A stretch of 64,000 nt of DNA from Schmidtea nova (taxonomy: Eukaryota). The stretch lies in assembly GCA_044892505.1 (NCBI GenBank), contig CM097883.1, positions 421,848,001 through 421,912,000 on the forward strand. The letters are read 5' to 3'. Made by a program: the position numbers and the translations under genes. The notes beneath the pieces were generated by a model. That model saw nothing but the letters and a program-made list of their open reading frames with translations, did no database searches and was not told the DNA's origin. Each line of letters begins with the position of its first letter. Positions within the stretch are counted from its first letter, which is position 1. Shown here in pieces: positions 11,201 to 54,440 of this stretch.

Positions 11201-13795
11201 CCTCATCAGAAAATAAACATATAAAAATGACAACAAAATGTGACATTCACAATATGTGTGTGTGTTGAATGTATTTTTTTATTATAATATATATTGTGAA
11301 TGCTTTTATGTTTTTATCAACAGAAATCTGCAAGGGCCCAAAAGAGTCTCCCAAAGCTTATTGTGGGGACGATTGGGGTGTAGGCTTGTAAACTTTTGTG
11401 TTAGTGAAATATAATCTTAACAAATAAATAAATATCTTAACAAGTAACGAACTTTAAACTAATTATTTTATTGAAAAGATAACAATGTAGCTAAAACAGG
11501 TACTCACACGATAGAATGTCTAATTAGAATAAAGGAATCGGCTTAGTTCTTTTTTTCTTTCGGTATCAAAAAATAGGTCTTTGAATAATTCTGACTTTAA
11601 ATTTTTAATTTTTCCAATCGTTGTAATCTATTTCTGATTTGGCTTAAATTAGGATTTTGATGGAATTTTATATTCTCTTGTATTTACTAATTTTCTTTAT
11701 TTCTTAATTGATTTTTTATTTTTGTCTTCAAATTTGTTTGGTAAGTTTTCCTTTTACAATTGTCGTAAGCTAATTGAAAGCTGATTATAATAAATAGTTT
11801 TGGAATTTTCTTTAATAATCTAATAATTATTCAATTTTGTCATCAATATTTTATCTTTGTAATTTGGCTTACTATAGCAATTAGCTATAGCAAGCCAAAT
11901 TCAAATTTACAAATAATAATAATAAAATAATTAAAATTACCAAACGTAATTCACACAAATAAATGGGGGGTTATCCGGTGTCTGCAAGGAAGTGTTTGGA
12001 ACGAATATTCGGTTTCTCCGTACCATTGTCTCATTAAATTATATAAGACGGTGAAAGGAAAAAGTGCAATTTAGAAGTGTTGTTAAGATATTTTTGGGGG
12101 AAATTGGCATAGAATTTAGATAAGATAGCGTGAGGATATAGTAAGTTAAGAATTGATAAATTTAAATGACCTTTGTAAATAGAGTGTAGTATATGCGTAA
12201 GATCTTCTATCAGCAGCAGGAACCTGAAAGATAGGATACAGTGAAGAGTAGTTTTGGCAACGAAGCCCATCTGCTCACTGCATTCTCGCCACCGTGTACA
12301 ATACCAACATAGTTTACCAATGATTAACTATTGGTACATGGGTGAGGTATTAACACTATTCATGATGGTATGTGGCTTGTAGTAATCCCTAATTTTTTTT
12401 AATTCTAGGTTAAAAATTTTATAATAGTAAAGTTAAAGAAATTATCAAGGGGATTAATAATTACTCTGTATTTTCACAATCCAAGGCAGTTGTGAAAGAT
12501 TCAATCAGACTTTGAGAGATAAATTGAAAAAATACTTTGTTTTTCAAGGAAATAAATCTTGGATAAATGTTTTTCCTGAAATGATTTATAGTTATAATTA
12601 TTCCCCCATGTAAAGGAATACAGGGAAAGCGATCCATTGATGATTATTCTATAAATATTATTTTATTCAACGTCCCAGGTGAAAATTTTAAAAATTCACA
12701 CGGTAAATTAGTTTATTTGGAAGTTAAGTTAATAATAAATTATAGATGAAACGAACGATAGCAAAGACGATGATGACAAAGAAGATGAACTAGTTGATTT
12801 TATTCATTTTGTTTAAAATAGAATAGTGTGAGTGGGTTCGTTTTAAATCCTTTATTCAAGCAAATATTACTTTTAATTCTGTAATTCAACCTCATGAGAG
12901 ATCTCTGTAAAGTTTTATTCCGTTTTTAAATAATAACATAGCTTAAATTTTAGAGCCAATCACATATCAATCTGTTTAATGGACGTATAACTTGCTTATA
13001 TGTTTCGATCTTTATTTCATTTAAATTTTTAAAATATACCCATTTTCTCAATTATTAAAACAATTGTCACTGGTGATTTCCTAAATAAGTAAATGATAAT
13101 GATTTCAAAAACGATTTTCACTTTTATTTGTTTGATATTTATTTTAAGAATATTTTCATATTATTATAAATATTATTTAATCGTAAAATTATTTTATTAA
13201 TTCGTCTCACTGTGTATGCATTAATAGTTTATTATTAAAACATTTACCGAAATCTATGATTTTGCTTGAGTGATTTATTAATTCACATAAGAGGATATTG
13301 AAAAATGTAAAACCCGAAGTGATTTTGTAATACATCCAGTTGGTATTGAGCTAGATCTGACATACTTAGCTACTAAAGTGTTTTTCTTAATAAATTTTAT
13401 AATTGTTGCTATTAATTGAAAATTACACCTTTAAACTAAATTCTATTAAACATTGAAGAAACCTGGTTGTTAATAAGTATTCATTAAAATAAAACTAGAA
13501 AATAATTAAAAATTTTATTTAAATTCCAATGTAGTTGTTGTCTGGAAACTGATGATCTGTTATTTTGCTTCGTAAATTGATGATTCTTAGTTTTTGAAAT
13601 AGATGGGAAAATGTTTGCTGCTATGAATTATATATTTTCTTGATTGATATTTTCTTGCTTGCTTGGTATTTTTGAATCAGAGAAAAAGTGACGTGTTTTT
13701 GGTGATTTAAACAATCGCCTTTTTTATTTGTATATATAAATATGTAATGATATAATATTTAATTAAATTTCTATATATATATATATATTTCTATA

Positions 13796-15429: not shown

Positions 15430-15959
15430 TCAAAAGATTTGCTTTAGAGAGGACACATAATTTTTTAACTGAGTAGCTAATTGTTGGGTGAACGCCTGTC
15501 GTTGCCGGTTGCACTTTGCTCCTATTTGGTTCTTCTTTGCCTTCAATGGTGGGCCTTCGATTTTACCATGTAGTTGCCCAATCTCCGTTTTCATGACCGG
15601 GAAGTTGGAGACAATTTCGAGTGGTTCGTGGAACGTTGAAATCGAGATGTTGCCCATCCACTTATGATAAGTCAATATTCGGATTTGACCCCAAAGATGT
15701 TCTTCCATGAATTGTATTGAAATGGCGTTTCTACACTAATTCAATTCTCTTCGCGTCTAGCTCCAGTTGGATGTTGACGATGGTGCGCTGTACTCATTTG
15801 TTTCGCTGTAACTATGTCTTCATTTACGTAGGAGAGAAGTATTTCATACAACTGTACTCGTAATCGTGAAATTATTAGATTTAGAGTTGTCTCTTCCCGA
15901 GTGGAGGCTTTTCTTCTTTTACTTCCCTTGGTTCTTTCAAAGTCCATTTTATCCCTCAT
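15430..15959 (-). pseudogene. Degenerate copy of the coiled-coil/basic ORF2 of the unclassified multi-ORF family
   Basis: With frameshifts it reads TAQRTIVNIQLELDAKRIEL, EEHLWGQIRILTYHKWM and KKNQIGAKCNRQRQAF, which align to the ORFs at 30226-30678 and 53206-53826. Confidence 0.65.
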
Positions 15960-23435: not shown

Positions 23436-25531
23436 TTTGCAGTTTTGGCTCAACAAAAGCATGATCAAAGAATAAAGCTGGTATTAAAATAGAGAGAATA
23501 ATTTATTTAAATTTATAGAAGAAATCTACATTGAATCATCGTCAAAATAACTGAGATAGGAGGAAAATAGGAAAATTAATTAACAAATCAATAAATATAC
23601 ATAATTAAATAATATTGGGAAAAAAATTTGGAAAAAAAATTATAAAACATATCTTACAAGAATAAATAAATAAAATTGAATTAAATTATCTTTGTTTTTA
23701 CTAAATTATTTAATCATTAAACAAGGCTAACAATTAATGATTCATAAATAGATTTTAGGAAAATATTACTAAAAATGGTACCATAAAAATATTTTTGAAA
23801 ATAGGTAAATTCTGCCTCATAGAAGTTAACGTGTGGGCGTACATATTGCGTACGAATGACTGGTGTTGGGGGTTCGGTAAAGTGGTAGAACATGGAGAGA
23901 TAATTCAACTCATCCAACTATAATTTCTCTCACCTAAAGAGCTAAAAATAGAAAATTCGTGTAGCAACCCTGTATTGGTAGTAGACACACAACCACTCAA
24001 AAATAGTATAAATAGACACTGAAAAATCATAATTTTCACACACATTTCAATACTGTAGAACACGGTAACACTTTTTAACTCACAATTTGCAGATTTCAAT
24101 TCTTCCAAACAGCACCGGTCAGTATTTTTCCTATTCAATTTTGTGGTACATCGGATACAAGTATGTTTTTATTTTTGTATCTCTCAAGTTTGTTGTAACT
24201 ATTATACTTTATATGTAATTGCATTCTTTGTAATTTGTAATCAATAATAAATATTTTAATTTAATCATAAATTTATTTGTTTTGTTTTGTTCAATTGATT
24301 TTCCCCGACTAAACTGATTTCGTGCAGAGATCTTGTTGGCCATTAGCCCACTCATCTCCGGTGTGCCTGGTCTTCATTCTCGCAGAGGTGGAAGCGGAGG
24401 CTGGATCATCGAACCTAAATTATATAGATCGATTGGAGTGAAAGAGAATTAATGAAATATAGGGTGTTGTTATTCTGATATTTTTGGGGAAATATATAGA
24501 AGTAAAGGTTAACTGCCACAAAGTGACATCATAGGAAGATAAGAATTGATAAATTATAAGGACCATTTGAAGTATAAGGTAATTGATATGAAAAAGTCCT
24601 TCTATCGGCAGCAGGAACCGGAAAGAGAAGATACAGTGAGGAATAGTTTTTGGAACGAAGCTCACACGCTCATTGGATTCTCGCCACCGTGTACATTACC
24701 AACATAGATTACCAACGATTAACTATGGGTACATGAGTAAGGTATTAGCAATATTTATGATGGTATGTGGCTTACAGTATTCCCTAGAAACAGAAAATTT
24801 AAACATCCAATTTTCCAACATGTGTCTACTATATGTATATGAAGATAATCATTGAATAGTTTAAATGTTTTTGTTTTTTTGCATGTTTCATGATGATTAT
24901 ATTTGACGAGCCAAGAATTTTATACGAATGTCTGTGTATGAAACATTAAATAAATTATTAAATATTTATTTACTTGTTTCATTATTTATTTTTGAATAAG
25001 GGAATTATGAATTTGTTTTATTTTAACTTTCAATAAATAGTTATAGAGTTTAGATTAAGTATGGGACTAAAATCGAGCAATATATCTTCTATCGGTCGCC
25101 CTTGAACCAACCTGTGACATTCGGTCAATTATATTTTCGATTCATTCGATGCTCACTTTCTGCGAATGTCCACCCATTTGTTGTAATACCAACGGTACAC
25201 TGTAGTGGGCAACAAGATAGTTAACTAATGTTTTATGTGCTCGGTTGTTGACAGATAGTAGCCTTAGAAAAAATCTAGGTCATATTGTTTATCAACAACC
25301 CACGATATGTAAATCCAAAATTATTCTACGATTTTGTACATTTGGTAAAATGTTTTTAAAAAAATGGTTAAATATCTATATTTATTTAAAGCTTTTAAAT
25401 AAAAATTTTTTAAATAAACATTTCTAAAAATTATTACAGTAATAAACATTATAAAATTATTGATAAAACTATTCTTAATGTGTTTAAATTATATATGAAT
25501 ACCTTTCTATTTCAAATTGTTTTTAACTAGC

Positions 25532-27649: not shown

Positions 27650-29575
27650 GTGTCTCTAGGGTAATTTAGCATGCTGATTCCGAAATTTTTATCGAAATTT
27701 CTCCATCACGTCTAGTTTTTTATATAAAGCAGTATCCGAAATTTAGAAAAAAAGTCATTTAGAAGGAAAGTTAGTTGAAGTTAACGATATATTTTTAAGG
27801 AGATTGTCATTAAAAATATAGTAAATCATAGCGAAAACAATTTATGATAGACACAGACAGAAGTAGAAAGATTGCATGAGAATTTCAACAGCAAGATAAA
27901 TGAAACGGAAAAATACGCTGAGTTAGGCTGTCACTATTTGATATTTCAGCAAAGAAACGCAGTGTCAATAAAATTTAAGTATCAACATTCATTAACCAGC
28001 AAAAGTCTGCCATCATCCTTGAGTCACTCCTGCCTTGATAGCGATTTTCAATAGCTTTGATTGTCTGGTGAAACCTTTCACCGTGTGCATTACTCACTTT
28101 TCCCAGATCGTCAGGAAAAAATTCCAGATGATTCTTCAAAAAATGAATTTTGAGAGACATATTGACATGTAAGAGGTAGAAAAATAATAATATGATACAG
28201 CCACAATAATTTGAAGTTATCTTCAGTGCAGCAAAAGCATCAAGAAGCTCAGAAACGACTTCTTTGTAGTTGCTAGAGTGGTTTTTCCCAAAAAATTTCT
28301 GACTACCTCTAGGAGAGCATTCCAGACTCGAAGTTCTATCTGGTTGAGTGTCATTCTGAACACTTCACTTTCCATTATCTTCCTTAACTGTGGGCCGACA
28401 AAAACTCCTTCCTTTATCTTTGCTGCGGACAATCTGGGGAATTTCCGTCTCAGTGTTTCCATCGGCTCTCCTTCTGTATTCAAGACTTTAACAAATTGCT
28501 TAAACAGGCCCAATTTGATGTGGAGAGGAGGTAACAAGACGTCATTAGGATCGACTAAAGAGTTGTATTTGATTGAATATGTCCCCGGTACTCGTGTCTG
28601 TCTAGCTGGCCACTGATTGGTAGTTTAGTGGTTTTGTCTATCTCTGCTATCCCACAGACATAAAAAGCAACAGAATTTGGTGTAGCCCTGTTGCATGCCC
28701 GTGAGCATTCCAACAATTTTGAGGTCTCCACCAACCTTCCACAGATATTGACTGTACTGAATAAGTGTTAGGATGGTATTCACTGTTTCATAAGTCTCTT
28801 TAACTAGTCTTCCATATACCATTGGGATAGCTGGATATTTGTTTTCGATGTGCAGAAGAACGGCTTTAATGCTGCAGACACTGCCATCAATGAACAACCA
28901 CCAATCTTTCTTAGCATCACTGACGAAACTAAGCTTTCCAAGCAAGCCATTAACATCACAACAATACACTAAAGAACTGTCTTCGTCCTTTTTGAAGTAA
29001 ACCTGGTATTCCATATCTCTGTGTCTATAAACTGAAATTCTTGTCTCCTTGTTTAAACTCCAAATTCTTTTAACATCGATGCTGCCAGACAAGCATCAGA
29101 TTTAGACAATTCCAACTTTCTTATAAACAAGTCCAATTAAGCTTGGCTGAGTCCCATTGTCTCATGAGTATGTTCATCAATGTATTCTTCACTGCTCGTG
29201 TCGTCTCCATTATTGTTTGAACTGTATTAATTTTCTTCACAAGCAGACGTGTCAGTTGGCTTTGAAGGATTTTCACCTTCTTAGTATGGAACTGGTCGGA
29301 CTGCTGAAAGCAAATCAGGATAAACTATATGTTAAGCACTTTTCTTGGTGAAACCTTTGACATTAGTCAGACAAAATTAACAGTCATTTACGTGGTTTGA
29401 CTGTTCTCTCCATGCCATAGGAGTTGAGAATGGTAGTTTTTTCAGTTTCCCAAATGATCACATGGAAAGATTCGAAGAGCATTTTCTGCAAACGGTATGA
29501 AATGCAAATGGTTTGTCTTGATCACCAAGTTTACATTTAAAATAACAATAAAATCTATGTTGAATCAATGCAGTG
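27650..29575 (-). mobile_element. Chapaev3-like (CMC superfamily) DNA transposase pseudogene, 5' end interrupted by an insertion
   Basis: Motifs in order: KLGDQDK...HTVCRKC, TPMAWREQSNH..DC, WWLFIDGS..SIKAVLLH, GDLKIVGMLTGMQQGYTKFCCFLCLWDSRD, LPPLHIKLGLFKQFVK, MSLKIHFLKNHLEFFP, HGERFHQ...RYQGR. Several stops and frameshifts are present. The DNA-transposase call is firm; the Chapaev3 label is from recall. Confidence 0.8.
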
Positions 29576-29757: not shown

Positions 29758-30225
29758 ACTTTTATTTCATAAAATATGTTGGTCGTATTGCTTTTTTAAA
29801 TTTAAACAAAATCTCAACTTTCTACTTCCTTTCATTCATTTACCTCTTACTTTTGCTCTGTTTCCTTTCTAGGGTCGCAATACGCACATAAAAAGCATAC
29901 TGTCGATGTACCCGCGAATTTCCCTACATAACAGTCGATCGCAAGCCAGCAGGTGAGCTCCTTCACAAGAACTACTCCTGACTCGTCGCATCGTTCGGGT
30001 TCTACTTGACCGATAGAAGGTCTCATTCCTCTTATTCCCTCATCCAGTCGCAGGTCTCTAATTTGGGTGATTTAACACTCTAGCCGGTTCTATTTTCTTT
30101 CTGTCAGAGGTCTAATACTCCAGCTTTGTCTTTCGTTCAATCTATCATTAATATCCCTTCAGCCAACTATAACAAATTCCAAACTATTTATTATACATTT
30201 ATTTAATTAACACACAAAACGACAT

Positions 30226-30678
30226 TTATTGTTCGTCATCACACAAGTTTCCTGTCTCAATGTTCTTTAGCACCAATATTGATGTAGAGTTATTCTTCTC
30301 GTCGGCGAGCTTCTGTTTCAGTTGTCGCCGTCTCTGCGCATGTGACTTTCGACGATTTCGGGGTCTTCGCTCCTGCGATCCTTTCGTTAGTCCCGTTTCC
30401 GTCTTCTCATCAGGCAATCTGGGAAACCAATTTTCGAGAGTTATTGGCCTGATCTGATCTCGGAGTTGTACGGTCACAAAATTCTCGGTAATCATTCGCC
30501 GACAGTTTTTCACTTCTAACCTGGTCGCTTCTAGTTCGATCCGCTGCTCTTCGATCGTCGTTCGTGCTCGTTGTAATGTTTCCTGAACTCTCTTCATCTC
30601 CGCAGGATGAAAGTAGCTCTCTTCTAATTCAATTATACGACGTTTTAACTTTCCCATCGTTTCTCGTTCTGACGTCAT
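30226..30678 (-). CDS. ORF2 of unclassified family: 150-aa predicted coiled-coil protein with basic C-terminal patch
   Basis: Open frame; homologous to 53206-53826 (YFHPAEMKRVQETLQRARTTIEEQ vs WFNPERVKTILQARHRAERTIDEQ). Confidence 0.65.
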   Translation of the reverse strand: MTSERETMGKLKRRIIELEESYFHPAEMKRVQETLQRARTTIEEQRIELEATRLEVKNCRRMITENFVTVQLRDQIRPITLENWFPRLPDEKTETGLTKGSQERRPRNRRKSHAQRRRQLKQKLADEKNNSTSILVLKNIETGNLCDDEQ

Positions 30679-31024
30679 AGCTTTCTTAAAGAATTTTATG
30701 ATATTAGTGGAAATTGGAGTTATTGATTCGCCTCAGGAACTAAATCCTTCATCTTTACACTATTCCTACTCTCTGGTTGTCCTCGCTACTCACCACTCTA
30801 TCGTCCTCATTAAAGTGAACCTGTTACTATCTTAATATTCCCGGTTACATATGACTACTTAGGTTAAAAAATGAACACAACACATACAACGAAATGAACA
30901 CGGACTTAGTATATTTTTAACTACAACACTTTACACAAACTGCAGGTGGCGATCAACATAAGTCAATAAATTCGATGACATCGTCTTCATAATCCATATC
31001 GCTAACTCCTGTGGGACTTGCAAG

Positions 31025-31356
31025 TTAATTGGAGGGGTCATTAGCGGAAGGAGGGCCTAGTACGAACCAGCCGAGGCTCCAAAATTCCTCGACTGGAATT
31101 GTTCCCGTGTAGTAGATGTTGAATCGCCCGGGAATCTCGGTGGGCGATTCGACGAAATAATTCGGTAGATCCGGTGGATAATCTTTATCCACATCAACTG
31201 GCCATGCTCGACTACCATGCCATGTGATGATATCAAGGCTGTCTCTATGCAAACTGAAGCGAGGTTCCCTGCCATTCTCCAGGAAAGAAATTCTATGTTC
31301 GTCGACGATCTGCTGCGCAAGATCCGTCGGAATGTCCTTTAGTGGGAGAGCCTATA
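31025..31356 (-). CDS. ORF1 of unclassified family: Trp/Pro-rich protein fragment
   Basis: WHGSRAW...PPDLPNYF...TGTIPVEEFWSLGWFVLGPP aligns with WEGDTDW...PENPRWF...TGMMSGKELHQLGYTLLDRP in ORF 52437-53072. Confidence 0.6.
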
Positions 31357-32689
31357 TAAGATAATTCTACCTCGCTCCCGATTTCCTTTCCTCCGATTCC
31401 TTCTCCGTCATACTATCGTCTTCTGCTTTTAGATGAATACTCAATCGTTGCATGTCTAATCTAGATATGATAAATAACATTACAAAATTTAGGAAACATT
31501 GGGGGAAGCGCCTCTCCAGAATATTTTCTATGTTATCGTACCTAGCGTGGTCTGCATTTTTTGGAAGTGAAGAGTCCTCTAACTGTGGTATTCTCAGGAA
31601 TCGCGATAACTTGTCATTTTAGGTTCGACTCACTTACGGTAATTTCATTATTTATTTTCTCTTTTGGGGTCGTCAAAATTTTATTCCGTTTATTTTAATT
31701 CCCGCCAATAGATTGAATGTACGATTGCTTGTCATTTATTACGGTCGACATAGTTCTACTTTAACGACAGTTCTTGTGTGGGCTTAATTCGACTGCCCAA
31801 TCTCAAGTGACACTCTCCTCACACTAAACAAAACTACTCGTCGACTTATCAGGCCTCCATTGTAATCAATGAAAATTCATTCATACTTTCCCACAACAAT
31901 TCTCCGCTCTCCTGGCATTAAGTGTTTTCTCTGCCACTTCACATTTTCCTGAAAATTCGATCTAAAACGCTTGACAATCTACACAATTCCCCGCTCGCGT
32001 GGCCTTAAATGTTTTATACTGCCACTTCACAATTTCCTAAAATTTCACTACACGTACTTGAAAAATTGTCACTTGAGATTATGCCGCTAACCTACAGTGC
32101 GCTGTTGACTGAATATTTCACATATTACCCAACTAGATGAAAAACCCCTGGTAAACAATTTTATCGATTTAGTCAGAAATTTCAGTCAAATTGGTGTAAT
32201 GGGTACAATCTACCAGAAAACATTTAATGTAATTATAACGTTAGTTGGCGCACCTGGCCGATTTATTAGTAGGTTTAAAATAGTTTTTCGCTCTCTTTTA
32301 CGTTTGGTGGTATAAATGGTCTAATTTGTAACGCTCAAATAGTCATATCCCTCTTACAACGGGTGGAAAACTCACTACAGGAAGTTCACTGAAAGTTAAC
32401 GTTCCCGATTTTGTATGGATTATTATCATCATTTTCCAATTTATTGTCCTACATTCTGCTTAACTCTCGGTTAGTTACTACACTGGAAACCTGCATCGGA
32501 CGGCTCCGACATTCACCATATTATTTCAACATAAAAAAATCTTGTACGGAAATCACCATCCTCGCCCCGTTCCCGAAGGCCCGAAACGAAGATGGAAACT
32601 CCTGGAGAGCCGACGAATCTGAACTGATTGTCGAGACCCTCGCATTATCTATATGTATGATATAAAACGAATGAGAACACATAGGGTTA

Positions 32690-33246
32690 TTATCATAAAT
32701 TTTTATTTAACAGCAATACAGATGACTTGCAATTTACTTCCGAGCAAAAGTGTTGGATTAGAACTGTGTCCTACGAGTGTTGCTATGATAATAATGCAAA
32801 TATGTAACTGGTGTAAATTAGTGGTTTTTGCGTGTAGAAATGATATACACTAGTATATATGACATTAATTTTGACTGTCCTGAGCGCCTCCTTATATAGT
32901 CAAATTGGCGCTCAGGCAGCCAATCAGAATCGAGTACTTCTTTTATTGGTTAATTTATTCGTTTCTATATTTTATTTTATTTATTCGTTTTTATTATATT
33001 ATTTGTTTTATTCATTTCATTTATTTTCATTAATTCCTCTTATTTTCTCAATTTCTATTTGATTTCACATTTTTATCACTTTTTCATCGATTTTTCATTT
33101 TTGTTTTAATTGTACTCTTTCCTGTTACTGCTTTCTCAATTGTTTCCTAACTTTCATTATCATTTTATTATTTCTTTCTGATTCTTTGTCATTTCCTAAT
33201 TAATTGCTCACTTTATTTCTTTATTTGTTTTTGCACTAACCCAACA
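32690..33246 (-). repeat. LTR-like repeat (TGTTGGGTTAG start, CCAAT, TATA, AATAAA)
   Basis: Diverged direct copy at 36560-37127; both share GATTGGCTGC(C/T)TGAGCGCC...TAT(A/A)AA...GGCGCTCA. Confidence 0.7.
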
Positions 33247-33699: not shown

Positions 33700-36130
33700 A
33701 CATAACTTCCCCCTTTAAAACCGGAGGATATATATTTACAAAAATAAATCGAAAGTTGTCTGTACATATTTCATTTCTGTTTTGTGTGTGTTTGGTATGT
33801 TTGTGTACTGTCTTTAACAACTCACAATAAAAAATAAAAATATACAAAGATCATATGTTTGCATGTTATGTAGTGTTGTGTTGCTTTTGGTTGCGTGTCT
33901 TGGTGATGTATTATTTGAAGCAGTCACTGTATTGTTTTTTGTATGGGGTGATAATAGCATTTTTGTCAAATTCCTTTATTGCGTTTTTGTTGTTGAATGT
34001 TATATGTTTTTTCTTTGTTTGGGTTTCGTTGGGTGACGTGTTGCATGGGGATTACATATATGTTGATGATATGGTTTTATCCGTCGTATGTTAATTCTCA
34101 TTTTGCTGTTGTTTTTTATAATGGTGGCTACATTTTTGTTTATTTCTAACAGTTTATACGGGTCTTCATATTTAGCCTCGAATCCTTTTGTGAAAGGTTT
34201 TTTTATTAATATGTAGTCCGAGGTTAGCATTGTTTTTCCGTCTGACTCGGAGTTTTCCCTCCTTTTAAAGATTCCCTTTGGTTTGTTTATTTCGGTTTCT
34301 TTTCTCTTTTGACTGTCAGTTTTCAGTGATGGTAAATTTGTTGATTTGTATTTGTTGTATTTGTTGCAAAGAACCTTGAACATTTCGGATTCAAATTGTT
34401 TGCCTTGATCAGTTATAATTGTTTTTGGTTGTCCGTAGTGAGCTATCCAATTTAGTTCTATCATTTTGCAAATATTTTTAGCGGTTATTTCCTTTATTGT
34501 TATTACCTCGAACCAATTAGTCTTTCTATCTATAATTGTTAATAAGTATTTGTTGTCCTCGTTTGGTGGCAGACGTCCTACAATGTCAGTGTGAATTATC
34601 TCAAAAGCTTGGCTGCTTGGGAAATTCACTTTTTGACTTTTGAGTTTTTTTGAAGTTTTGTTTAGTTGGCAATTTGGACAACTTGTTACAAAATTCTTTA
34701 TATCGGTTCTCATGTTGGGCCATACATAATTGTTATGTATTAGTTCGTATGTTGTTTTGTTTCCCGGGTGATTTATTGTGTGCATCTTTTTAATGCATAT
34801 TCTTCGGAATTCCTCTGGGAGTAATATTCGTTTGTTAGTTTCATTTGATATGTCGTACCATACTCCGTTATATTCCTGAAGTTGCAGGCTATGTTTTGTA
34901 GGAAGTTTTCTTATTGTCTCGGATTGTTTAGGTTTAATTTGTTCTATTTCTATTATTTTCTCGAATTCCAAGGAGTTTATGTCGCTTTCTATTCTAGATA
35001 GAGCATCTGCCGCGACGTTTGATTTTCCAGCTACGTAATTTATAGTGCAATTGAATTGGGAGATAAAATTCAATTGTCGAATTTGTCTTGGCGATGGATT
35101 ATTGATCGCTATTGCGTTTAATAGGGGCTTGTGGTCAGTATATATTTTAAAAGTTTGCCCTTCTAGTAAGTGTTGAAAATGTTTAATTGCATCATGTATC
35201 GCTAGGAGTTCTCTGTCAAATGTCGAATATCTCATTTGATGAAACTTTAGTTTTTTTGAGAAGAATCCTATTGGTTGTTTTCCAAATTGATTGTCCTGAT
35301 ATATTGTTGCGCCCATTGCGAAACCTGAACAATCTGTTGTTAGTTGGTATTCTAATTTTGGATCTGGATATCCGAGTAATGTTGCTTGAGAAAGGCTTTC
35401 TTTAGCTTTTTCTAATGCTTCCGTTGTTTGTTGTGTCCAATTTATTCTGATATTTCGTTTTGTTTTTATGATTTCATTTAGTGGTGCCAATAATTTGCTA
35501 CAGTTGGGAATATAGAAGTGGTAAAAGTTTACCATTCCCAAGAATCTTCTCAATTCCTTAGTGTTAATTGGCAATTTGTAATTTTTAATGTTGCTTATTT
35601 TGTTTTCAATTGGTTGTGTTCCTTTTTCGTTTAGGGTATGTCCGAGGAAGTTTATTTCGTTTTTCATGAATTCGCATTTTTGTGCGTTGATTTTTAGTTT
35701 TGCCTTTTTTAATGTCTCGAAAACGTTCTTAATGTCGTTTAAATGTGTTCCCTTGTCTGGGCTAGTTATTAATATGTCGTCCAGATAGGCGATTGTGTTT
35801 TTGTTGCTTTTCATTGTTTGATCCATAAATCGCTGGATAGTTGCTGCTGCGTTTCGTAGACCGAAAGGCATTCGGTTGTATTCAAACATTCCGACCGGTG
35901 TTGTTATTGCAGTCTTTTTTATGTCTTCTTTCCTTATTGGGATCTGATGATATGCTTTTTGCAGATCAATTTTTGAAAAGTATTTTGCGCCCTTTATTCG
36001 GTTAATTATGTCTTTTATAATTAGTAATGGGTAGCTGTATGGTTCTGTGATTTTGTTTAGAAGTCTTTAATCACCACAGGCTCTCCATTCTCCATTTGCT
36101 TTTTGTTTTAACATCAAAGCAGTAGACCAT
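33700..36130 (-). mobile_element. Ty3/Gypsy pol (RT-RNase H-integrase) with internal integrase deletion and polypurine tract
   Basis: 629-aa ORF 34000-35889 contains RMPFGLRNA, YLDDILI, TDCSGFAMGA, integrase HHCC (HPG...CPNC), IHTDIVG and ITDQGKQF. The RT N-terminus (KIDLQKAYHQIP) lies upstream, past one stop codon. PPT AAAGGGGGAAG is near 33707-33717. Confidence 0.93.
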
Positions 36131-41860: not shown

Positions 41861-42749
41861 CACAACAACCAATCTGAAAAATTCATTTTAAATCACAACT
41901 CCCATATTTATAATTAATTAAATCTATAATCACATTTGTACTCATTATTTCACTCATTAGGATCACCTATACAGTATAATGCCTTCAGAAAAACCAATAC
42001 CAAATTTTACTCACCTATAATTGAGATTTAGGTAGTCATTGCACTTATTAACATCCTATGGCCTTAATCTGTTTTTTTAATTGATACACCCGTTAAAATG
42101 GTTTATATTATATAAAGTCATTAGATCATTCGAGTGTGCTTCCATACTTAGGAAAATGAATTAATTCTAACCATATCCCTTAACCTCACCCGTAAACCAA
42201 TCCATATCATAGTTCCTTTTCCATTGCATTGAACTTGTCAACAATTAATGAGGGAACTATTGACATCAAACTTTATTTAATTGGAAATTTTAACTCAATA
42301 TCTATCCTGAAGATCATATCTATAAATTATGGAAAATTATTCAAAACGAAACACACAAAACCAGATAATATATGTATTATTTTCATAAAATCAAGTACAA
42401 TCGATTGCACAACAATTTTTGTTTTTACCAATAGCAAATTCCAAAATTACTTATCGGTAAAATAATTTCCAAAATAATAGTCTGGAGTTGATATTGTCGA
42501 AGTCGGCCGCCAGACATTTTACCTCGCATGGTAGTGATTTCCATAATTTGATTCCGACACACTTTCCCTTAAAAGTTTTCTAAAACTAAAGTTAATTAGA
42601 TAAATAATAATGATTGAAATTAACCTTTCAACAGAATTGACAGTCTGTAATTGAATTTAAATCCTATGATATCTTTGAAGATCCGTATCTAGTTCTGTAG
42701 TTGAAAAATGAAAATTAAAGTTTTTAAAATTTTTTTGGGCAAAAACTGC

Positions 42750-42930
42750 AAATTGTTTTAATAAAGCAGTAACCCCTTAAGTAGAGAACGCGCAAGATTC
42801 AATTTTAACCCAAACATTCATTGAAAACCAAAGTGATTAAGAGAAAAACGTCAAAAAGGTGAAGCGGACTCAAGCACATTAACCAGTAGAGAACGCGCTA
42901 GCTGTGAATTTGCAAGTCCTTACACTGAAA
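42750..42930 (+). repeat. Dispersed repeat, homolog of 23230-23435
   Basis: See the 23230-23435 entry. Confidence 0.8.
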
Positions 42931-45900
42931 TCTCGAGAAAAATTAAAAGTCGTCAAAAGAAGAGCGTTTGAAAGTTAGAATAGGCGGAAAACCCATTGAA
43001 GATGCCCATAAAGAACGAAATTTTGTGCAGAAAAATTAACAAAATTTTAGAAGAAAATTGTGATTTTATCACAAAATTTCACATTTAACAATAAAAAGAA
43101 CTAATATTGATCGAAATATCGTAAATTAAATCAAATCGAACAAATTTCGATTCAAAAATAAAAATTTTGAATTAAAATAAATTATTTGTATTTTATAAAA
43201 AATTATGGATCTAATTTTTCGGAAAATCATTAGAATTAATTTAGAAGAATTAAAAAGAACATTCTAGAACAATTTGTTTTAGTGCACTAGTGAAGGTAAC
43301 GCAAAATCGACGGTATATATACCGCCATCAAAATGGCAAGAAGCAGAATTTGTGGTAAAATTTTTTTTAGTTTGAAAGAATTTTGTGGAAGAAATTTTTT
43401 TCTTAGAATTTGGCAGAATTTGTTAATTTTTGTGAAGATTTCGTGGAGAAAATTTTTGAATTTCTGTGAAAGAGGAAGAAGACACTGATCCCCGGAAGAC
43501 GAAGATAAAAACGAGCATTTTATAAAAGAATTTTTATGCCAATTTGAAGATTTTCCGGAGTTTGCGAACCACTGAAAGAAATGTAAGGATTAATTTTCTT
43601 TTTAAACTTGTTTTTGAGGGGTATGGGATCGTCGATCATCATGCCTGACGATCATCCCATTCCTCGCGCTTTATTAATTAATATTGTATTTATGTTTTAT
43701 TATTTTTAATTTAATGCTAACACATTATTATGATATTATTAAAATAAATATTTTATTCATATTTTATTCAATTTAGTTTTAAATTTTTTCTTGTTGTTAT
43801 TACTATTGTCATAAATTCCCAAAATAATTAAAATTTCATATAAGCATTTATCTAAATACGGAAAATAATTTTTTTTATTCTCATATCTTCTGACGATTCG
43901 TCCAGCCTTGCGTTGTGCGGATTTGTTAGTAGCCTGGGTGGATCGTTGTCTGATTAGTAATCGGCCAGCCCATATGTCCACTTTAAGGTGAGGCTCATAC
44001 ATCCATAATCACGTCATCCCAACTTGGGAATCGTGGTATGGCCAAGAGCAAGGATTTGTTATAATAATGATCTTTATTATAATATAGTAGAATATTCATA
44101 CTACATTACATAAGCAATTCGTAACATAACATAAATTCGTCCAGCTCATGTCTTGAGATCCAAAATAGGCACTATATTACTAAATAAAATCGACTCGCAC
44201 TCACCTTCGCCTTCACAGATACCTTTTCGTCTTATTAGATTTCATCATGTGTGAAATCAGAAATCAATAAAAATTGCTCAAACGAAAACCATTTATTGAA
44301 TAATGAACTAGGTAAAAGAGCGACGAATTGTTAATTGAAAGATTATGATTTTTATGAATTTTTAGGTAAAAAATTCGTACCCTGTGGAAAATTTTGACGA
44401 GGAATATTGTTAGATGATTTAAATCTTTTGCATGAATTTTTATCTTATTTTATTTACGAAAATTTTAAATTTTACATTTTGTGGCATATTTAGTTTTAGG
44501 TACTTGATTTTAGCATAAAAATTATTTATTTGATTTTGTAAAAAATTTATAACGGATAAAGTAAAAATGGGAATATTAAATAACTGAAAGGATCCAGAAA
44601 AAGAATTGCTAAAAAATTAAACTTCAAATCTTCAATATTAGAAAAATTTTAATATAATTGTAATTGTGAAATATTATAAATTATTATTGTGATCTTGATG
44701 GAAAATATTATTCCATATATTAATCTCAGGGAACGCAAATTAAGAGAAAAATTCTAATTCTACTTATTTAGATATAAAAATTTAAAAAAATTTAAAATTT
44801 TATTGTAAAATTTTTATTAAACGGTTAAGAAATTGTAAACCTTAAATTACAAAATTTTTATTATTATTTTGATTTAGGAATCATAAAAATTTATTATTAT
44901 TATTTTAATTTAGGGATTATAAAATTTACTATTATATTAATCTAGAAAGGATAAAATTTATTATTATTATTTTAATTTAGCAATTTTAAAAGTTTGTATT
45001 ATTATTTTAATTTAGAATTTAATTTATATATTATGTCTATATTATTCGTAAAATACCCCCTAAAATCACATACAACCTTATTTGCAAATCATAACACCCA
45101 TACCATTCAATAACATTATCCATACTAATAACACAGGCAACATATATTTAAAATACAATGCACACACACCACACCGTATCACTCAATAACATTCATTAGC
45201 AACATACATCCAAATAATTCATACAGAAAAGCTACACAGTTAGTTTAGTTAGCATCATGCATCTATAACTCATACAGGCAGTCACTTAATCATATTCATA
45301 TCTACATCTTTTAATTCATCCAACAATCCATTCTACATACCATCACGCGAAATTATAACAATAGAGTGTCCGTCTCAAACTTAAAATAACGTACTAATAC
45401 ATACAAACTTGCAATCAACAATATACATGAAAATCCATACCGTCATACAAATCACTTCATCTCATTCCCTCCTTTCTTCTACCCAGCATACCACAGCTAG
45501 TGAAAAACCCGTGTTAAACCCCTTTCCCTATGGTTAAACGAAGGCAATCATTCCACTTAATTATATTCTCTATACTTCGATACCCATTTAATTTCCAAAA
45601 CAATGGATTAATTTTATTGTCAAGAAATTCAGACATTCATTCAGCATAATCCTTCAAATATAGTATATTACCTTATGTGAAAATAATATTCCACCCCATG
45701 CATATTTAGTTTGAGCCTACAATGTTCATAACTGCCAAATCACTCAGGGCAATTCGAAATAAAAAACAAATAAATCAATAAATAACAACAAAATATCAAT
45801 GAAAATTTATTGAATTTGAATATACAAAGGGAAATTATTGTGTATGCACAGTTTGTAACATTATTCCTTCAGACATCGAAGTTACGAATTGGAGAATTTT

Positions 45901-47239
45901 GGAATTGCACGAGTGACGAAAGTGAAAAATTTCCAAAATTTGAAGGGAATTCCAAACTTAGTTTTTCAGCCGGCATGTATGTGAACAATACGACAAAATT
46001 CAGTAACTTTGAAAATGGCCGTGGGAAATTTTTCTTGCCGGTGAATAGAGTGAATTCACAACCCGCTGAATGAGATACAGGTATCAGTATCCGATATTAG
46101 GAATGATAAGAGATGTTGTTAGATTGAATTGCTAGAACCACGGCTAGCATAGCGATGCTTTTGGTAGGAGATCCGACGCCAGGTAGATGCCCGAAGTCTG
46201 GATGAATTGATCATAGATCGATATTCCACTCACGAGAGATGATTTAAAGAAAATTTATTCCATACATTGAATTGGGAATTCGATTGAGTTTTCTTTTGAA
46301 GGAGATTTTTCACGTTTTTCTTAAATATCCAATCATCAAACTAGGATTAGAACGGTTATAGGGAAATAATTAATAATACTGATTACCTTTACGTTCCTTC
46401 ATATAACCAGAAAATGTGGATTCAGAAATTTGCAAGTTAAATTCTCCAATCTAAAATAATGATTATGTAATGTAAATGTCTATAGTGTAAAATACCCAAT
46501 CATCAATTGCCATTTTTGAATACTCACCTATATAGATTCTTCTTTACCTGGATTATCACGATAAGATTAACATAGGGACACCCGAAATCCGTTTATCTTA
46601 AATAAAAATAAAATTCTACAATTTAAAAATTAAAATAAATTTCACAAAACCTTAAACAAATTTATAAATTAAACAGACAAAATATTGGAAAAATTTGCTT
46701 CGCTACCCGTTGCTAGGGCCGCGGCAAGAATTTAAAAGCTATGATGTTAAATTTTTTATTTAATTAAAAATTAAATCCAAAATATAAAGCAAGTTAGACA
46801 CTAGGTATAAGGGATTAAAATCTTAGCTTGAGTTTTAATGAAAGGAAAAGTCCAAAAAAATAGAAATTCTGCAATAAATAAGCATTTAGACACAAATAAG
46901 AAAAATCAAATACGTGTTGATAAAAGATTTTTTCGATTTCTGAATTGAGATTTGATAAGCACATCCATGGAAAACTCGCGATCGAATATGTGAGAGCTCC
47001 TTAACTTATTGTAATAATGAATGAACTAATTAAATTTTCGTGTATGATGATAAATGTTGTAATTATTGTGCGTTAACCATTTTCAATATGTCTTAAGAGT
47101 TTGAACATTTTTAGCAATGAATCCGTTTGGCCGAACTGGAAGCCAAAGGATCGTCCAACACCGACGCACTCCAGCTGATGACCAGCCGAATGGAGAAATT
47201 TCGGGCCCGCTGTCGAGAGATGGAAGCGACATGGTCCGA

Positions 47240-47618
47240 CAAAGAAACAGTAGACCGATTACGAAAGTAGAACCAACTGCTCATTCAACAAGCCGCCGAA
47301 GACGCAATGAGATTGCGGGCGTGTCGAGTCTCAATGCGAGAGCAGGAGCTCGTAATTGAGAAATTGAAGGTAGACAGTGGCCTCATCTCGGCTATACTAC
47401 CGAAATCTCAGCCTCCACCTCAGGAATTGTTCCCGGTGAGAATGGAGGAAGAAATCGCAGCAGCAGCAGCTCCAACCAAGCCAAAGCAATGGAGGCCCAG
47501 TAAAGGAGCCAGAGCCAGGAACAAGTGTCTCCAAGAAGCGCGAGTGCTAGGCCAGTTGAGAGTAGAGGCCTCGAAAATCATTGATTTCAACATTGATTTG
47601 ACCAGTTCGCACATTTGA
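47240..47618 (+). pseudogene. Divergent ORF2-like copy of the unclassified family
   Basis: AMRLRACRVSMREQELVIEKLKVD followed by a basic patch KQWRPSKGARARNK; two copies of the family motif follow at 47845 and 48258. Protein similarity is weaker than in the other copies. Confidence 0.45.
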
Positions 47619-47809
47619 TTTGATCCTGTTATAAATCTTATGTTACAATTATAAGTTTTCGATTATGTTTTTTTTCCTATTTGTTTGTTTGATTAAGGAT
47701 ACAGATAAAAATAAAAGAGATCAAATAAATTAATTGATTAATAAATGAATCACGGTTTAGCAAAAATATTCAAATGGAGATCTTGTATTGAAAATCCACA
47801 ACGATAGAG

Positions 47810-48480
47810 CGTTTGATTTAAAGGGACAAAAATGGGCAATAAACCTTCTATCGGTAGCCCTTGGACCCAGGAGATATTCGGTCAATCATAGTTTCTCACT
47901 GATTGCGAATACCCACACATTTGTTGCATTACCAACGTTACTTTGTGACGGGCAACAAGATGGTTATTTTCAATGTTTTGTATGTTGAGTTGTTGATACG
48001 AGCCACGGTAACGTCAAGGTCATATTGACGATCAACAACCCACCAATTTTTAAATACAAGATTAAAATTATTTTTAAAAATTTTTTATTTATTAATTATT
48101 ATAAATTGTAAAATTGGCAAAATTTAATGTTTTGTTAGTGTTCTGATGCTCGGAATGATTCCCTTTGATGTAGATTATTTATTTCGAAATTCCGATTAAA
48201 ATCTTATTGAAGGTCTATAGATAAATTGTTGAAGAAGGGACAAAATGTGCATTAAACCTTCTATCGGTAGCCCTTGGACCCAGGAGATATTCAGTCAATC
48301 ATAGTTTCGTTTTTTTCGACGCTCACTGATTGTGAATACCCACACATTTGTTGGATTACCAACGTTGCATTGTGACGGTCAACAAGATGGTTAATCTAAA
48401 GTTTTGTATGTTTATTTGTTGATGTGAGCCATAGCAACGTCAAGTTCATATTGACGGTCAACAACCCACCACTTAGTATA
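47810..48480 (+). repeat. Two tandem about 230-bp copies of the CTTCTATCGG motif region
   Basis: AAACCTTCTATCGGTAGCCCTTGGACCCAGGAGATATTC occurs near 47841 and 48254 and continues to CAACAACCCACCA. Confidence 0.92.
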
Positions 48481-50479: not shown

Positions 50480-50935
50480 TTCAACGTTTTTCGGACTTAA
50501 CTGTTTCTTTGTTCATATTTATATACCCTGCACAGAAAAATTCTCTCGGAAGGGAACCTGAGCCAGGAATACATAAATACTTTATAGCCAATTGGCTTAG
50601 GGAGGGTAAATTTGTTTTTTTTCCAGGAATACATAAATACTTTATAGCCAATTGGCTTAGGGAAGGTAAATTTGTTTTTTTTCCAAGAAATAAGTGGATC
50701 GTCACTTATGGGCAGATTAATATACTTTGATAACTCGTCATGATTACCGTCAGCATCTTCATCATGATTCATCCATAATAAAAATTTCTTTTTATTGGAT
50801 ACATTAATAGATTCTCCGAAGATATCCGTGTTGCTGCCTCTTCAACTGGCTGATTTATTGCAATTAATTTTTCAACTATATATAAATCATCGTCTGTTTA
50901 GTATATTGTTGGGCCAGCCAAATCGAGCAGCATCT
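50480..50935 (-). mobile_element. hAT (ZBED-like) dimerisation-domain remnant with a 60-bp tandem duplication
   Basis: DELSKYINLPISDDPLISWKKNKFTF, then in another frame LSQLAIKYLCIP. The repeat unit starts at 50563 and 50623. Confidence 0.72.
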
Positions 50936-52436
50936 GAAAATAATATACAATCAATAAAATAAATTAAATACAGAATAACAACAAAATAAATTACCAACAC
51001 CAAAGCGTAACAAAATAGGCGGCAACATCTAAAAGAAATAAAATATTAATCAAAACAACAAAAATCTTCAAAACTCACTCATGCGAAGCAGAAAAAATTG
51101 GAATATGACAGCGCGTGGGCGGATGTCACCGAAGACCTAAAGCAAAATCAAATAAAAATTAAATCGTACAAAAAATAAACTTACCGCATGATTAACCAAA
51201 CAAATCGGCGAGTTAAGTTAGGCAGCAAAAAGCCGGCAACACAGAATAATGATCAAACATACACACATACTCGATGCTGATTGGCTAACCAACAACACCG
51301 GTTCAGTATAAATACTGAAGTAAAATCAGTATTTGAAATGTCATTTTTTACCGAGTGCAAGTCGTAACTGATAACTTGTAACAACCTTGTATTGGAAACC
51401 AGTTGGAAATAAAAGGTAATTTGGTGTTATGTTATTGATGTGTCTAAACCCTCATAATTGTTTATAAACATGTTAAAATCAATAAGGTTTCCGGAGGCCT
51501 AACAGCCTGACGGATTCTCTGGCCTCTCAGCGCAACACAATCTTTCGGTTGTGAGGTGCTGATGCGGCGGGACCATAGGTGTATTAAATATTTGGAAAGC
51601 GGAAGGGGTTAAATGCACATAGGGTATCGAGTAAGACCTAACGATCATGAATGAAATCAAGGTAGAGATGATCTAATATAAACGTTATACATCACGATGA
51701 TAGGGTATCGAGTACAACCTAGTAGTCGTAAACGAGCGTAAAGTGAAGCCCATTTTGTAGGAAGGATATATATCGTGGCGAAGTCTAGACGAGGGATATA
51801 CGTGTAGTGAATCATATTAGTGCAGATGAATTAGGTGACGACGAGGGTAGGTATATGTTGACATTAGCGCGTACGAGTTCGAGCATAGTGAACCTAGTAG
51901 CAAGGGTTAAGGATAATCGATAACCTCTGTCAGCTGTGTTTAGTCGCCAGGAAAGATGATAAATAAAGCACAGGCATCGAGAACCGATAAAATGATGAAC
52001 CCCAGTGAGTAAGGACCACAGGAACTTACGAGAATTACCCGACATGGTATGATCATTGCTGGTTAGATGAGGAAGTGACCGAGGACGACTGATGAGATTG
52101 AATGTAATAAATAGTATTATCAATAAATAAAACCGGTTAAAGTTGAGTGGTTGAACCTGATTGTTGAAAATTAAGTGCAATAGTGATCTGATTAATAAAT
52201 GCAACCAATCGTGCGTAGCAAAATTGTCGAAATAGCACGCGTAGCACATTAACGTCAAGCTATCATCTAACACGACCCACGTCCAGTCCACAACAATAAT
52301 TCCGGCAAAAATATAGAAGGTACCCCTCGAACCTACAGAATTTCCAAATTTAAGACGGGTGGGTTGACTAATATAAATAGGCCCGTTCTACCATAGAATC
52401 CATAGCTAACAAACAATCATCTTCTTTAGAAATACC

Positions 52437-53072
52437 ATGGTGAAACTAGAGAATTTCCAAGAGAAGCCGATGGTCGCACACCCGATAAAGATAGAGGACA
52501 CCATCCTTCGTAAGAAACGGCGCACCCGCTCCGTCATCCGACCCAATACTAACACAAACATCAGAGGAGAGAACGAAGCGCCTCGAAGGGTTGCAGAAGT
52601 ATCACGTCGTCACCTACGACGATGGATGAGGGCCCATATGAGCTCAGCAGCTAGCACCCCAGCTTGCGCGTTTGGACTACAGTTGCGGTGGGAAGGAGAT
52701 ACCGATTGGGTACCCTCCTCGGATCATAGCAAGCCGGAGAATCCCCGATGGTTCTATCAATTCTGCGGTGAGTTAAAGCAACCCCGCTGGCTACTAAGCA
52801 CCGGAATGATGTCCGGAAAAGAGCTACATCAACTCGGATACACGCTGCTAGACAGGCCTCGGTGTCGCTACACTGAGGAAGTCTTCGCTTATTCCAATGC
52901 GCCAGGAAGTGTTTCCGTGGAACAACACCCCGAGCCCAATGAGCTTCGCCTCTGGGAGGTGTTTATCTACAAAGATAAGCTGAGTTGGAACCCAGCCCCA
53001 GAAATGTATTGGGAGAATGGAATTCGTCGCGACGAGCATCCGGCCGACCAGGAATTACGACCCTTCATCTAA
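52437..53072 (+). CDS. ORF1 of unclassified family, 211 aa, basic N-terminus and Trp-rich domain
   Basis: Open 211-codon frame in a GC-elevated island; homologous to 31025-31356. Confidence 0.7.
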   Translation: MVKLENFQEKPMVAHPIKIEDTILRKKRRTRSVIRPNTNTNIRGENEAPRRVAEVSRRHLRRWMRAHMSSAASTPACAFGLQLRWEGDTDWVPSSDHSKPENPRWFYQFCGELKQPRWLLSTGMMSGKELHQLGYTLLDRPRCRYTEEVFAYSNAPGSVSVEQHPEPNELRLWEVFIYKDKLSWNPAPEMYWENGIRRDEHPADQELRPFI

Positions 53073-53205
53073 ATCGCAAGGAGATCGATCATTGGAACGG
53101 AGATTTGAGGCGTATTAAAATAAATGTATTAATTTTTGGGTTTTGTTATGTCTTTGAGTGCATGAAGTGATCCGAGAGTGAAACACCTGTTTAATAATAA
53201 AGATA

Positions 53206-53826
53206 GTGACGGAGAGGACAGACAAACCATGCATAACCCGATTAATGATACATTTTTCAGAGATGAGTGAACATCCAACTAGGAACTACAAACAAGAGGC
53301 CAAAGAACATAAAGCACGATCGCGAGTCCTGGAAAACCGCTTGCGACAGCTAAACGACGAGCACCAGCGAATTAAAACCACGTGGTTCAACCCAGAAAGG
53401 GTTAAAACCATCCTACAAGCCAGACACAGGGCAGAACGAACAATCGACGAGCAAGCGAGCTAGGTAGCAGCACTAAAGATGGAGCTGTCGAATTACTTGA
53501 GGGCATCAACCCAGGAGTTTATCACTGAGCAATTACGCCCAGTGATCAGGGCTAGCACCTTTAATCGGTGGTTGGACACAATATCGATGACAACAAGTAC
53601 CCAAACGGAAATAGAAACCATCCCAATCACAACTACCCCAACATCTCCAATAATTCTGGAAGGCTCGAAACGAACAAAGAGACGGAATCGCTTGGGAGCG
53701 AAAAGGCGCAGGGAAAGACGCGCATATGCAGATCGCGTAGGAATAGAGGTAGACTTGCTCAGTGGTCTATCCGAGCAAGAACTACTAAATGTAATCCGAC
53801 CCTCTGTATTGCTGAACTACAAATAA
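53206..53826 (+). CDS. ORF2 of unclassified family (coiled-coil plus basic tail) with one internal TAG
   Basis: ORFs 53206-53463 and 53479-53826 are in the same frame, separated by TAG and 5 codons; homologous to 30226-30678. Confidence 0.7.
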
Positions 53827-54440
53827 ATGTATAAAATGAATGATTTGACTTGTCTTGTTTGTTTGTGGAATGTCTGAGGATTGAATGTAGATAAAGCCCG
53901 GATTCATTTTAAGGCTGCAGATATCTAAAAAGTAAATTACCCTAGAGCAAAGGAAAGAGCGCATTAGGAAGGGGACCGAAAGAAAACCACAAACACCTTC
54001 TATCGGTAGTGGTGGACCCGTGAATAAACAAGGGAATAGTAGCCGAAAGGTTGCTCACCTGCCTTGTCATTTCACAACGTTGACACAGCACCAACATGAT
54101 GAGTAGTTAGGGATACATCATGGGTGTCAGCGGGGGAATGTTTTTATGTTGGCGAGATCACCCTAACATATAAAATCTTAATGATCTCAGTTGTCCATCA
54201 AACCAACACACCAGCAATATCAAATTTATTCTACTTAATTAGTAAAGCATAAATCGCCATTTTTTGTTCTATGTTTGAAGTGATCAACCACGTCGTATTT
54301 TTTAATAATTTGTTGAATATAACAATTCTTGTACGCATTCACAATACACGATTGCAATAAATGAGCAAAAAATTGAACATTATCACCATACTCCACGCTC
54401 ATAGTTTTTAATATATTCACACCACTATTATGTACCACAG

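Follow-up and report, generated by a model that had tools for sequence, protein, structure and literature searches.

The 3.3-kb stretch at positions 50907-54216 (plus strand) of the Schmidtea nova sequence analysed here, a 64,000-nucleotide window of contig CM097883.1, is a solo long terminal repeat (LTR) of a ~29.6-kb Burro-type Gypsy element. Two complete open reading frames (ORFs) inside this LTR are under purifying selection, and its last ~220 nt hold a conserved structured RNA with covariation. This is an apparently undescribed LTR anatomy on an already known kind of element. The explanation that best accounts for the observations jointly, and in which we have high confidence, is a Burro-type solo LTR with two selected accessory genes, in which the product of ORF2 would act as a regulator and the RNA would dock the primer of reverse transcription. 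The features of the LTR, designated family A, are as follows.

50907..54216, plus strand: solo LTR, family A, with TGTTGG...CCAGCA ends, along its length 89-92% identical to both LTRs of five full elements
50903..50906 (left) and 54217-54220 (right), strand not applicable: 4-bp target-site duplication (TSD), ATAT
51279..51330, plus strand: CCAAT box (GATTGG), TATAAAT and TCAGT initiator-like motif (Inr), in 23/23 family-A LTRs
51408..51413, plus strand: AATAAA and, 3' of it, a GT-rich tract (a candidate end of R), in 22/23 family-A LTRs, ~95 nt past the candidate promoter
52372..52378, plus strand: TATA-like box ~65 nt 5' of ORF1, in 21/23 family-A LTRs
52437..53072, plus strand: LTR ORF1 of 211 aa, N-terminus basic, core rich in W and P, without a known family or fold
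53119..53124, plus strand: AATAAA and GT-rich tract 3' of ORF1, in 21/23 family-A LTRs
53263..53826, plus strand: LTR ORF2, 187 codons, coiled coil, linker and Arg-rich helix; a TAG at 53461-53463 breaks the window copy
53822-53827, plus strand: AATAAA overlapping the ORF2 stop, in 23/23 family-A LTRs
53996..54166, plus strand: structured RNA of two domains close to the LTR 3' end, just 5' of the position that the primer-binding site (PBS) takes in 5' LTRs

The stretch is a solo LTR of an autonomous element

The stretch was identified as a solo LTR because it has TG...CA ends and is flanked by the ATAT duplication, and because no PBS or internal sequence is present; a polypurine tract is likewise absent. 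The initial annotation had outlined a unit at 51800..54230 and described it as the best-preserved copy of its family. The real extent is larger, and the window ORF2 contains a premature TAG (53461-53463). A genome search with ORF1 revealed many same-strand pairs of matches ~26 kb apart with equal scores (150 scored among 2979 first-look candidates). All five regions that were fetched whole contained direct repeats of 3.1-3.3 kb, 99-100% identical to each other, that match the window LTR and flank a ~23-kb internal region. When 25 LTR pairs were fetched, 23 were resolved as full elements and two were left unresolved by the script, having failed its end patterns; each of the 23 had a 4-bp TSD, the same PBS and LTRs 99.0-100% identical. 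Recombination between LTRs is an established mechanism that produces solo LTRs, and the window copy would have arisen in this way. One contig from a public run joins 50898 to 54217 and resembles an empty site; the flank is repetitive and the contig may come from a paralogous site. Readings of the unit as a DIRS/Ngaro, Penelope or Helitron element were dropped once the LTR pairs had been found.

The earlier reading, that these are accessory genes belonging to a retroelement or an endogenous virus, was right, and the check proposed with it, defining termini, TSDs and linked enzymes from copies across the genome, yielded LTR pairs, 4-bp TSDs and linked reverse transcriptase (RT), RNase H (RH) and integrase (IN). 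The observation that no enzyme accompanies the unit holds in the window and fails for the family, with a fusion glycoprotein as well as RT, RNase H and integrase lying between paired copies elsewhere. The parent element had been missed because the window holds no copy other than solo LTRs and LTR fragments. A free-standing, non-autonomous family that lacks enzymes had been offered as an alternative; it agrees with the lack of a linked enzyme within the window and with the existence of internally deleted derivatives without RT and IN in two sister families, B and C, but it is refuted by the finding that the unit is one LTR of autonomous RT-RH-IN elements, and we give it practically no credence.

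The parent element has the anatomy of Burro

Family-A elements have a total length of ~29.6 kb, with LTR starts 26.0-26.3 kb apart in most fetched elements. The polyprotein frame is open over 5,082 and 5,086 aa in two of five family-A elements and interrupted in the other three. Its domain order is Gag-fusion glycoprotein-protease (PR)-RT-RH-IN-ankyrin, and Pfam analysis identified Retrotrans_gag, zf-CCHC, Monjiviricetes_fusion (PF24664, E 9e-69), RVT_1, RNase H, integrase and ankyrin. The PF24664 glycoprotein lies in frame between gag and pol, N-terminal to the protease. Separate family-A ORFs encode RING, TRAF/MATH, coiled-coil and membrane proteins; Ank, MATH/TRAF and RING were thus found in family A, and BIR only in a family-C element.

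The giant Burro/GYPSM1 Gypsy elements of dugesiid planarians are an already described type (PMC6431247, section 7), defined by an internal region of up to 25 kb, a total of ~30 kb, a single polyprotein of ~4,900-5,100 aa and domains that include an Smc-like coiled coil (PMC6431247), and the label "undescribed" in the initial annotation therefore did not hold for the element. Since its size, polyprotein order, in-frame glycoprotein and ankyrin, TRAF and RING domains match the anatomy given in PMC6431247, the family-A element is a Burro-type Gypsy, an assignment made by anatomy in which Burro1-4 and GYPSM1 were compared by description only. Common to both are the ~30-kb length, the ~5,000-aa Gag(CCHC)-env-PR-RT-RH-IN-ankyrin polyprotein with its glycoprotein in frame between gag and pol, and the TRAF/MATH, RING/BIR and coiled-coil accessory genes (PMC6431247). 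In contrast to Burro/GYPSM1, TRAF/MATH is here a separate ORF 3' of the polyprotein, and the text of PMC6431247 is silent on ORFs or RNA structure within the LTR, where we find both. A point against the assignment is that Pfam detected neither the BCL2-like nor the dUTPase-like domain of Burro; in the cut-out element pieces the SUMO-like motif likewise had no Pfam match. In Burro these three motifs were HHpred finds (PMC6431247). Our literature search, including the accessible portions of PMC11410931 and PMC8532177, revealed no account of ORFs or of a folded RNA within the LTRs of Burro; the search did not extend to Grohme et al. 2018 with its supplements or to Repbase, which may show the ORFs.

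Several individual elements have features of their own. Internally deleted Burro derivatives with LTRs 99% identical are present at C2:197.02-197.05 Mb and C1:105.37-105.40 Mb. In an internally deleted family-B derivative the polyprotein passes from the protease directly into ankyrin, and an internally deleted family-C derivative lacks env, RT and integrase and carries BIR-RING and TRAF ORFs. The two LTRs of the element at C2:70.78-70.81 Mb differ by a ~200-nt patch (LTR nt 1476-1668, 13 changes); for seven of the 13 changes both alleles occur in other elements, which suggests gene conversion.

Two genes inside the LTR are under purifying selection

Both ORFs proposed in the initial annotation were present. 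ORF1 was confirmed at 52437-53072 with 211 aa; ORF2 had been placed at 53206-53826, and its conserved start is the ATG at 53263, not 53206. Full-length ORF1 was found in 45 of 46 paired LTRs and full-length ORF2, judged by length, in about 40 of the 46. The purifying selection suspected earlier was borne out, with dN/dS values of 0.18 for ORF1 (26 non-redundant family-A copies) and 0.09 for ORF2 (24 copies), each stable across dS bins. Analysis of five full elements gave 0.18 for ORF1 and 0.10 for ORF2, compared with 0.03 for RT, 0.02 for env and 0.10 for TRAF. Shifted-frame controls for the two ORFs ranged from 1.1 to 3.0, with the exception of the antisense frame that shares third positions (0.34 for ORF1, 0.19 for ORF2). 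Taken together, these data show purifying selection on two complete ORFs inside the LTR. Integrated copies would be free to decay, which would account for the stop codon in the window ORF2.

ORF2 was modelled as an all-helical protein (mean pLDDT 76) in which two long helices are followed by a disordered linker and then by a helix rich in Arg; R141, A146 and R149 of this last helix rank with the most conserved residues. An ORF2 or ORF2-like frame occupies the same LTR slot in families A, B, C and G. The ORF2 alignment had no homolog at E<=1e-3, longer proteins included, and its Atlas scores were all under 0.8; the model had no Foldseek match, which does not show a new fold. No match in Pfam, PDB or Foldseek placed ORF2 in a bZIP or Rev/Tat-type family. 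Its basic helix presumably resembles a bZIP basic region, with no zipper following the helix. A full protein scan returned four matches, three of which look compositional (two long repetitive proteins and one coiled coil). The fourth, P0004, is a real homolog, with an ORF2-like N-terminus (0/500 shuffles) fused to what by eye is a proprotein-convertase-like/subtilase fragment; this UniParc entry is probably an LTR in an intron that was mispredicted as an exon in another genome.

ORF1 had no homolog at E<=1e-3 and no Atlas match. Its structure model was of low confidence (pLDDT 47), with a best Z of 4.3 and no viral match, and does not show a new fold. ORF1 turns over between families and, at 0.18, evolves faster than ORF2.

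Because no homolog of known function was found, the roles of ORF1 and ORF2 rest on composition and analogy. By that analogy ORF2 is likely a nucleic-acid-binding regulator. It would act like regulators of the Rev, Rex, Tat or Tas type, with the coiled coil multimerizing and the Arg-rich helix binding RNA or DNA of the element, a specific role that we propose tentatively, at slightly under even chances. Two points weigh against this picture of a two-gene LTR with regulatory products: neither ORF had a homolog of known function in the searches made, and the family-C LTR (1.95 kb) is without ORF1. Alternatively, the ORFs may encode host-manipulating or silencing-suppressor proteins instead of regulators of the element's own RNA. 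The element does carry TRAF/MATH, RING and, in family C, BIR-RING genes, ORF1 has the faster evolution and turnover described above, and BURRO1 is a PIWI target (PMC8532177). No host homolog or domain was found for ORF1 or ORF2, however, and the most conserved part of ORF2, the Arg-rich helix with R141, A146 and R149, fits nucleic-acid binding or nuclear import; we consider host manipulation unlikely, and retain regulation by ORF2 as the preferred role.

Conserved orphan ORFs of unknown function, some of them nuclear and with their own promoter, are also carried by the plant Ogre, Tat, Retand and Grande elements, but those belong to the internal region, most of them between pol and the 3' LTR, and do not lie inside the LTR (PMC7264820).

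Candidate transcription signals and a possible U5 or U3 location of the genes

The CCAAT-TATA-Inr set at 51279..51330 corresponds to LTR nt 370-425 in 23/23 family-A LTRs and, judged by its motifs, is likely the main LTR promoter. By eye, CCAAT and TATA were also recognizable at this position in families B and G, and not in C; the AATAAA marking the candidate end of R was absent from the family-B LTR inspected. Because the promoter motifs lie near nt 400 and an AATAAA follows ~95 nt later, there are hints that U3 is ~420 nt long and that both ORFs lie in a giant U5 of 2.8 kb. Furthermore, a TATA precedes ORF1 and AATAAA with a GT-rich tract follows both ORFs, on account of which we lean towards each ORF being a transcription unit of its own that would yield a short separate mRNA. 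A difficulty for the giant U5, and for a U3 location alike, is that genomic RNA would need to read through the internal AATAAA sites.

The rival arrangement places the genes in a long U3, as for sag of mouse mammary tumor virus (MMTV): genomic RNA would start past ORF2, the last ~350 nt would be R-U5, and the promoter near LTR nt 400 would serve the accessory genes instead. Minus-strand strong-stop DNA would then stay short, a TATA-like word (TATAAAA) lies just past the ORF2 stop in family A, and the MMTV U3 contains the entire sag ORF (PMC12789967). In contrast, the best conserved CCAAT-TATA-Inr set (nt 370-425, 23/23) with an AATAAA ~95 nt later (22/23) is the normal pattern of a U3-R border. 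We give the long U3 an even chance.

We also examined linkage among 21 young family-A elements, two divergent ones of the 23 having been dropped. Values of r2 decayed within ~100 nt, and LTR windows were linked equally to both flanks, pointing to very frequent recombination among family-A elements over the whole LTR and its flanks. Since recombination erases linkage within ~100 nt, this analysis does not separate U3 from U5. A window-distance correlation showed LTR nt 201-600 decoupled from the rest, with no single breakpoint.

Accessory genes that lie wholly or partly in the LTR, with extra promoters for short mRNAs, are known from MMTV (sag, rem), HIV (nef, in U3) and foamy viruses (tas, bet) (PMC12789967). 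Those systems are retroviruses and not Gypsy elements, and neither sequence nor fold showed similarity to them. In the present case the LTR, 3.3 kb long, holds two genes in full, both with an apparent poly(A) signal and possibly located 3' of the main promoter.

A conserved structured RNA precedes the primer-binding site

The conserved motif that the initial annotation had noted downstream of ORF2 is present at 53996. Eight copies occur in the window, and the motif is present in several LTR families; wherever the LTR end can be seen, it lies ~220 nt away. RNAalifold analysis of 30 diverse natural copies, left after two of 32 rows in the wrong orientation had been taken out, revealed two domains, each a stem, internal loop and hairpin. 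Two-sided compensatory changes were found in 21 of 24 pairs, and 87% of cells were paired compared with 33-46% in slid controls (30 sequences); the structure was derived from the same alignment on which it was scored, and two of five shuffle measures were weak (16/500 and 52/500). The window copy folded alone gave a modest z of -1.8. G-U outnumbered A-C in the pairs (57 vs 24), which favours the plus (sense) strand. Within family A the motif is nearly invariant, with a divergence of 0.02 in the last window compared with 0.08-0.29 elsewhere, and it has unpaired blocks that are invariant, together with GNRA loops and possibly a pseudoknot. An invariant GCTCACCTG block (window ~54051-54063) reads on the minus strand as a canonical 5' splice donor. 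No Rfam family, ribozymes included, matched at the motif at E<=1 when the whole window was scanned, and likenesses to HDV-like, twister and pistol ribozymes were dropped, given this result and a different helix order.

The PBS, common to 23/23 resolved elements, is complementary to the host tRNA-Pro(TGG). The 3' pattern of this tRNA has 899 exact matches in the genome, and the first 100 listed form a tandem tRNA-Pro(TGG) array with a 308-bp period at C1:459.6 Mb. Four conserved unpaired blocks of the RNA show complementarity to tRNA-Pro, one to its T-arm (15 of 30 rows), one to the acceptor strand (24 of 30), one to the anticodon loop (28 of 30) and one to the D-loop (19 of 30), and a k-mer test of this complementarity was matched by 4/150 shuffles at k=5 and 3/150 at k=6. 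The RNA would thus offer single-stranded blocks that pair with the T-arm and anticodon loop of the primer, as do the primer activation signal (PAS) and A-rich loop in HIV-1. There too, a structured RNA just 5' of the PBS has unpaired blocks complementary to the T-arm and anticodon loop of the primer (PMC11181671); sequence, fold and tRNA (Pro here) differ from the HIV-1 PBS segment, and the pairing here is predicted only, with mixed statistics.

Several points weigh against docking: the k=4 test was matched by 57/150 shuffles, a stricter dinucleotide-shuffle test failed (54/300), the idea was formed after the data had been seen, and the CCCTA block has another possible partner in a hairpin loop of the element itself. 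The conserved RNA may alternatively be a signal for packaging or dimerization, an export element to which ORF2 binds or a self-cleaving ribozyme of a new kind. Such a role agrees with the invariant unpaired blocks, GNRA loops and possible pseudoknot, with the near-invariance in family A and with the negative stricter test. It is opposed by the lack of a match to any Rfam ribozyme family and by the invariant bulged CCAA and GAACC, which match the anticodon loop and T-arm of the very tRNA named by the PBS, in the order of the HIV-1 PAS and A-loop (PMC11181671). We place this group of functions a little short of an even bet, and docking of the tRNA-Pro primer by the folded RNA, a predicted pairing with mixed statistics, is put forward as a lead only, with rather less than even odds.

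Other copies in the window belong to sister families

The remaining copies in the window are LTRs or LTR remnants of sister families, as follows.

29777..33246, minus strand: solo LTR of sister family B, TSD TATT
~31480-30956, 30678-30226 and 30020-29870, minus strand: family-B ORF1, ORF2 (open) and RNA motif
42733..48471, plus strand (42733-43471, 47124-48045; extra 3' end 48237-48471): interrupted family-C LTR containing an ORF2-like frame and two copies of the RNA motif
15430..15841, minus strand: decayed ORF2 remnant of a further LTR family
24598..25303, plus strand: two LTR 3'-end remnants with the RNA motif
12204-12376 (plus strand) and 968-1135 (minus strand): further RNA-motif copies

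The same order of parts, reported earlier as recurring in inverted orientation, does recur at ~31480-29870. Elsewhere, LTR pairs of families B and C enclose internal regions of Burro type, some of which lack RT and integrase (three of five regions fetched are such elements). The earlier claim that copies align at the protein level stood for ORF2, where three of five pairs were strong (A-B, A-E and B-E, 0/1000 shuffles each), and was marginal for the copy at 47.1-47.6 kb (20/1000 and 32/1000 shuffles; profile 14/500 and 23/500). For ORF1 it was weak: comparison of the 52.4-kb and 31.2-kb copies gave an hhalign probability of 0.2%, and 274-367 of 1000 shuffles were as good as the pair, compared with 1/500 for a bridged-family profile. 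The case for ORF1 homology between these two copies is weak and rests largely on their shared position.

Elsewhere in the window, an ordinary Gypsy pol fragment and several remnants that look DNA-transposase-like by eye lie at 34000-36066 (minus), 4665-5589 (plus), 55249-56013 (minus) and 27975-29095 (minus). A near-perfect 162-nt palindrome lies at 58615-58939, within a region (56659-59460) of inverted and direct repeats that are long.

Implications for Burro elements and planarian genomes

Burro elements are among the largest retrotransposons known, they are PIWI-controlled in a regeneration model, and their LTRs have been treated as non-coding. In its fullest form the picture would be of two whole genes 3' of the LTR promoter in a ~2.8-kb U5 or leader, strong-stop DNA of nearly 3 kb, thousands of solo LTRs born as two-gene cassettes and an RNA family that grips tRNA-Pro at several arms, a combination that we regard as improbable in its entirety. 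The parent element is already known, which limits the surprise. Compact and open to direct testing, the conserved RNA offers a new structure for the priming or packaging of retroelements, and the two genome searches gave 2979 and 8794 first-look candidates for the LTR genes. If the LTRs hold selected genes, solo LTRs would be potential protein-coding cassettes genome-wide and would give rise to false exons in gene models.

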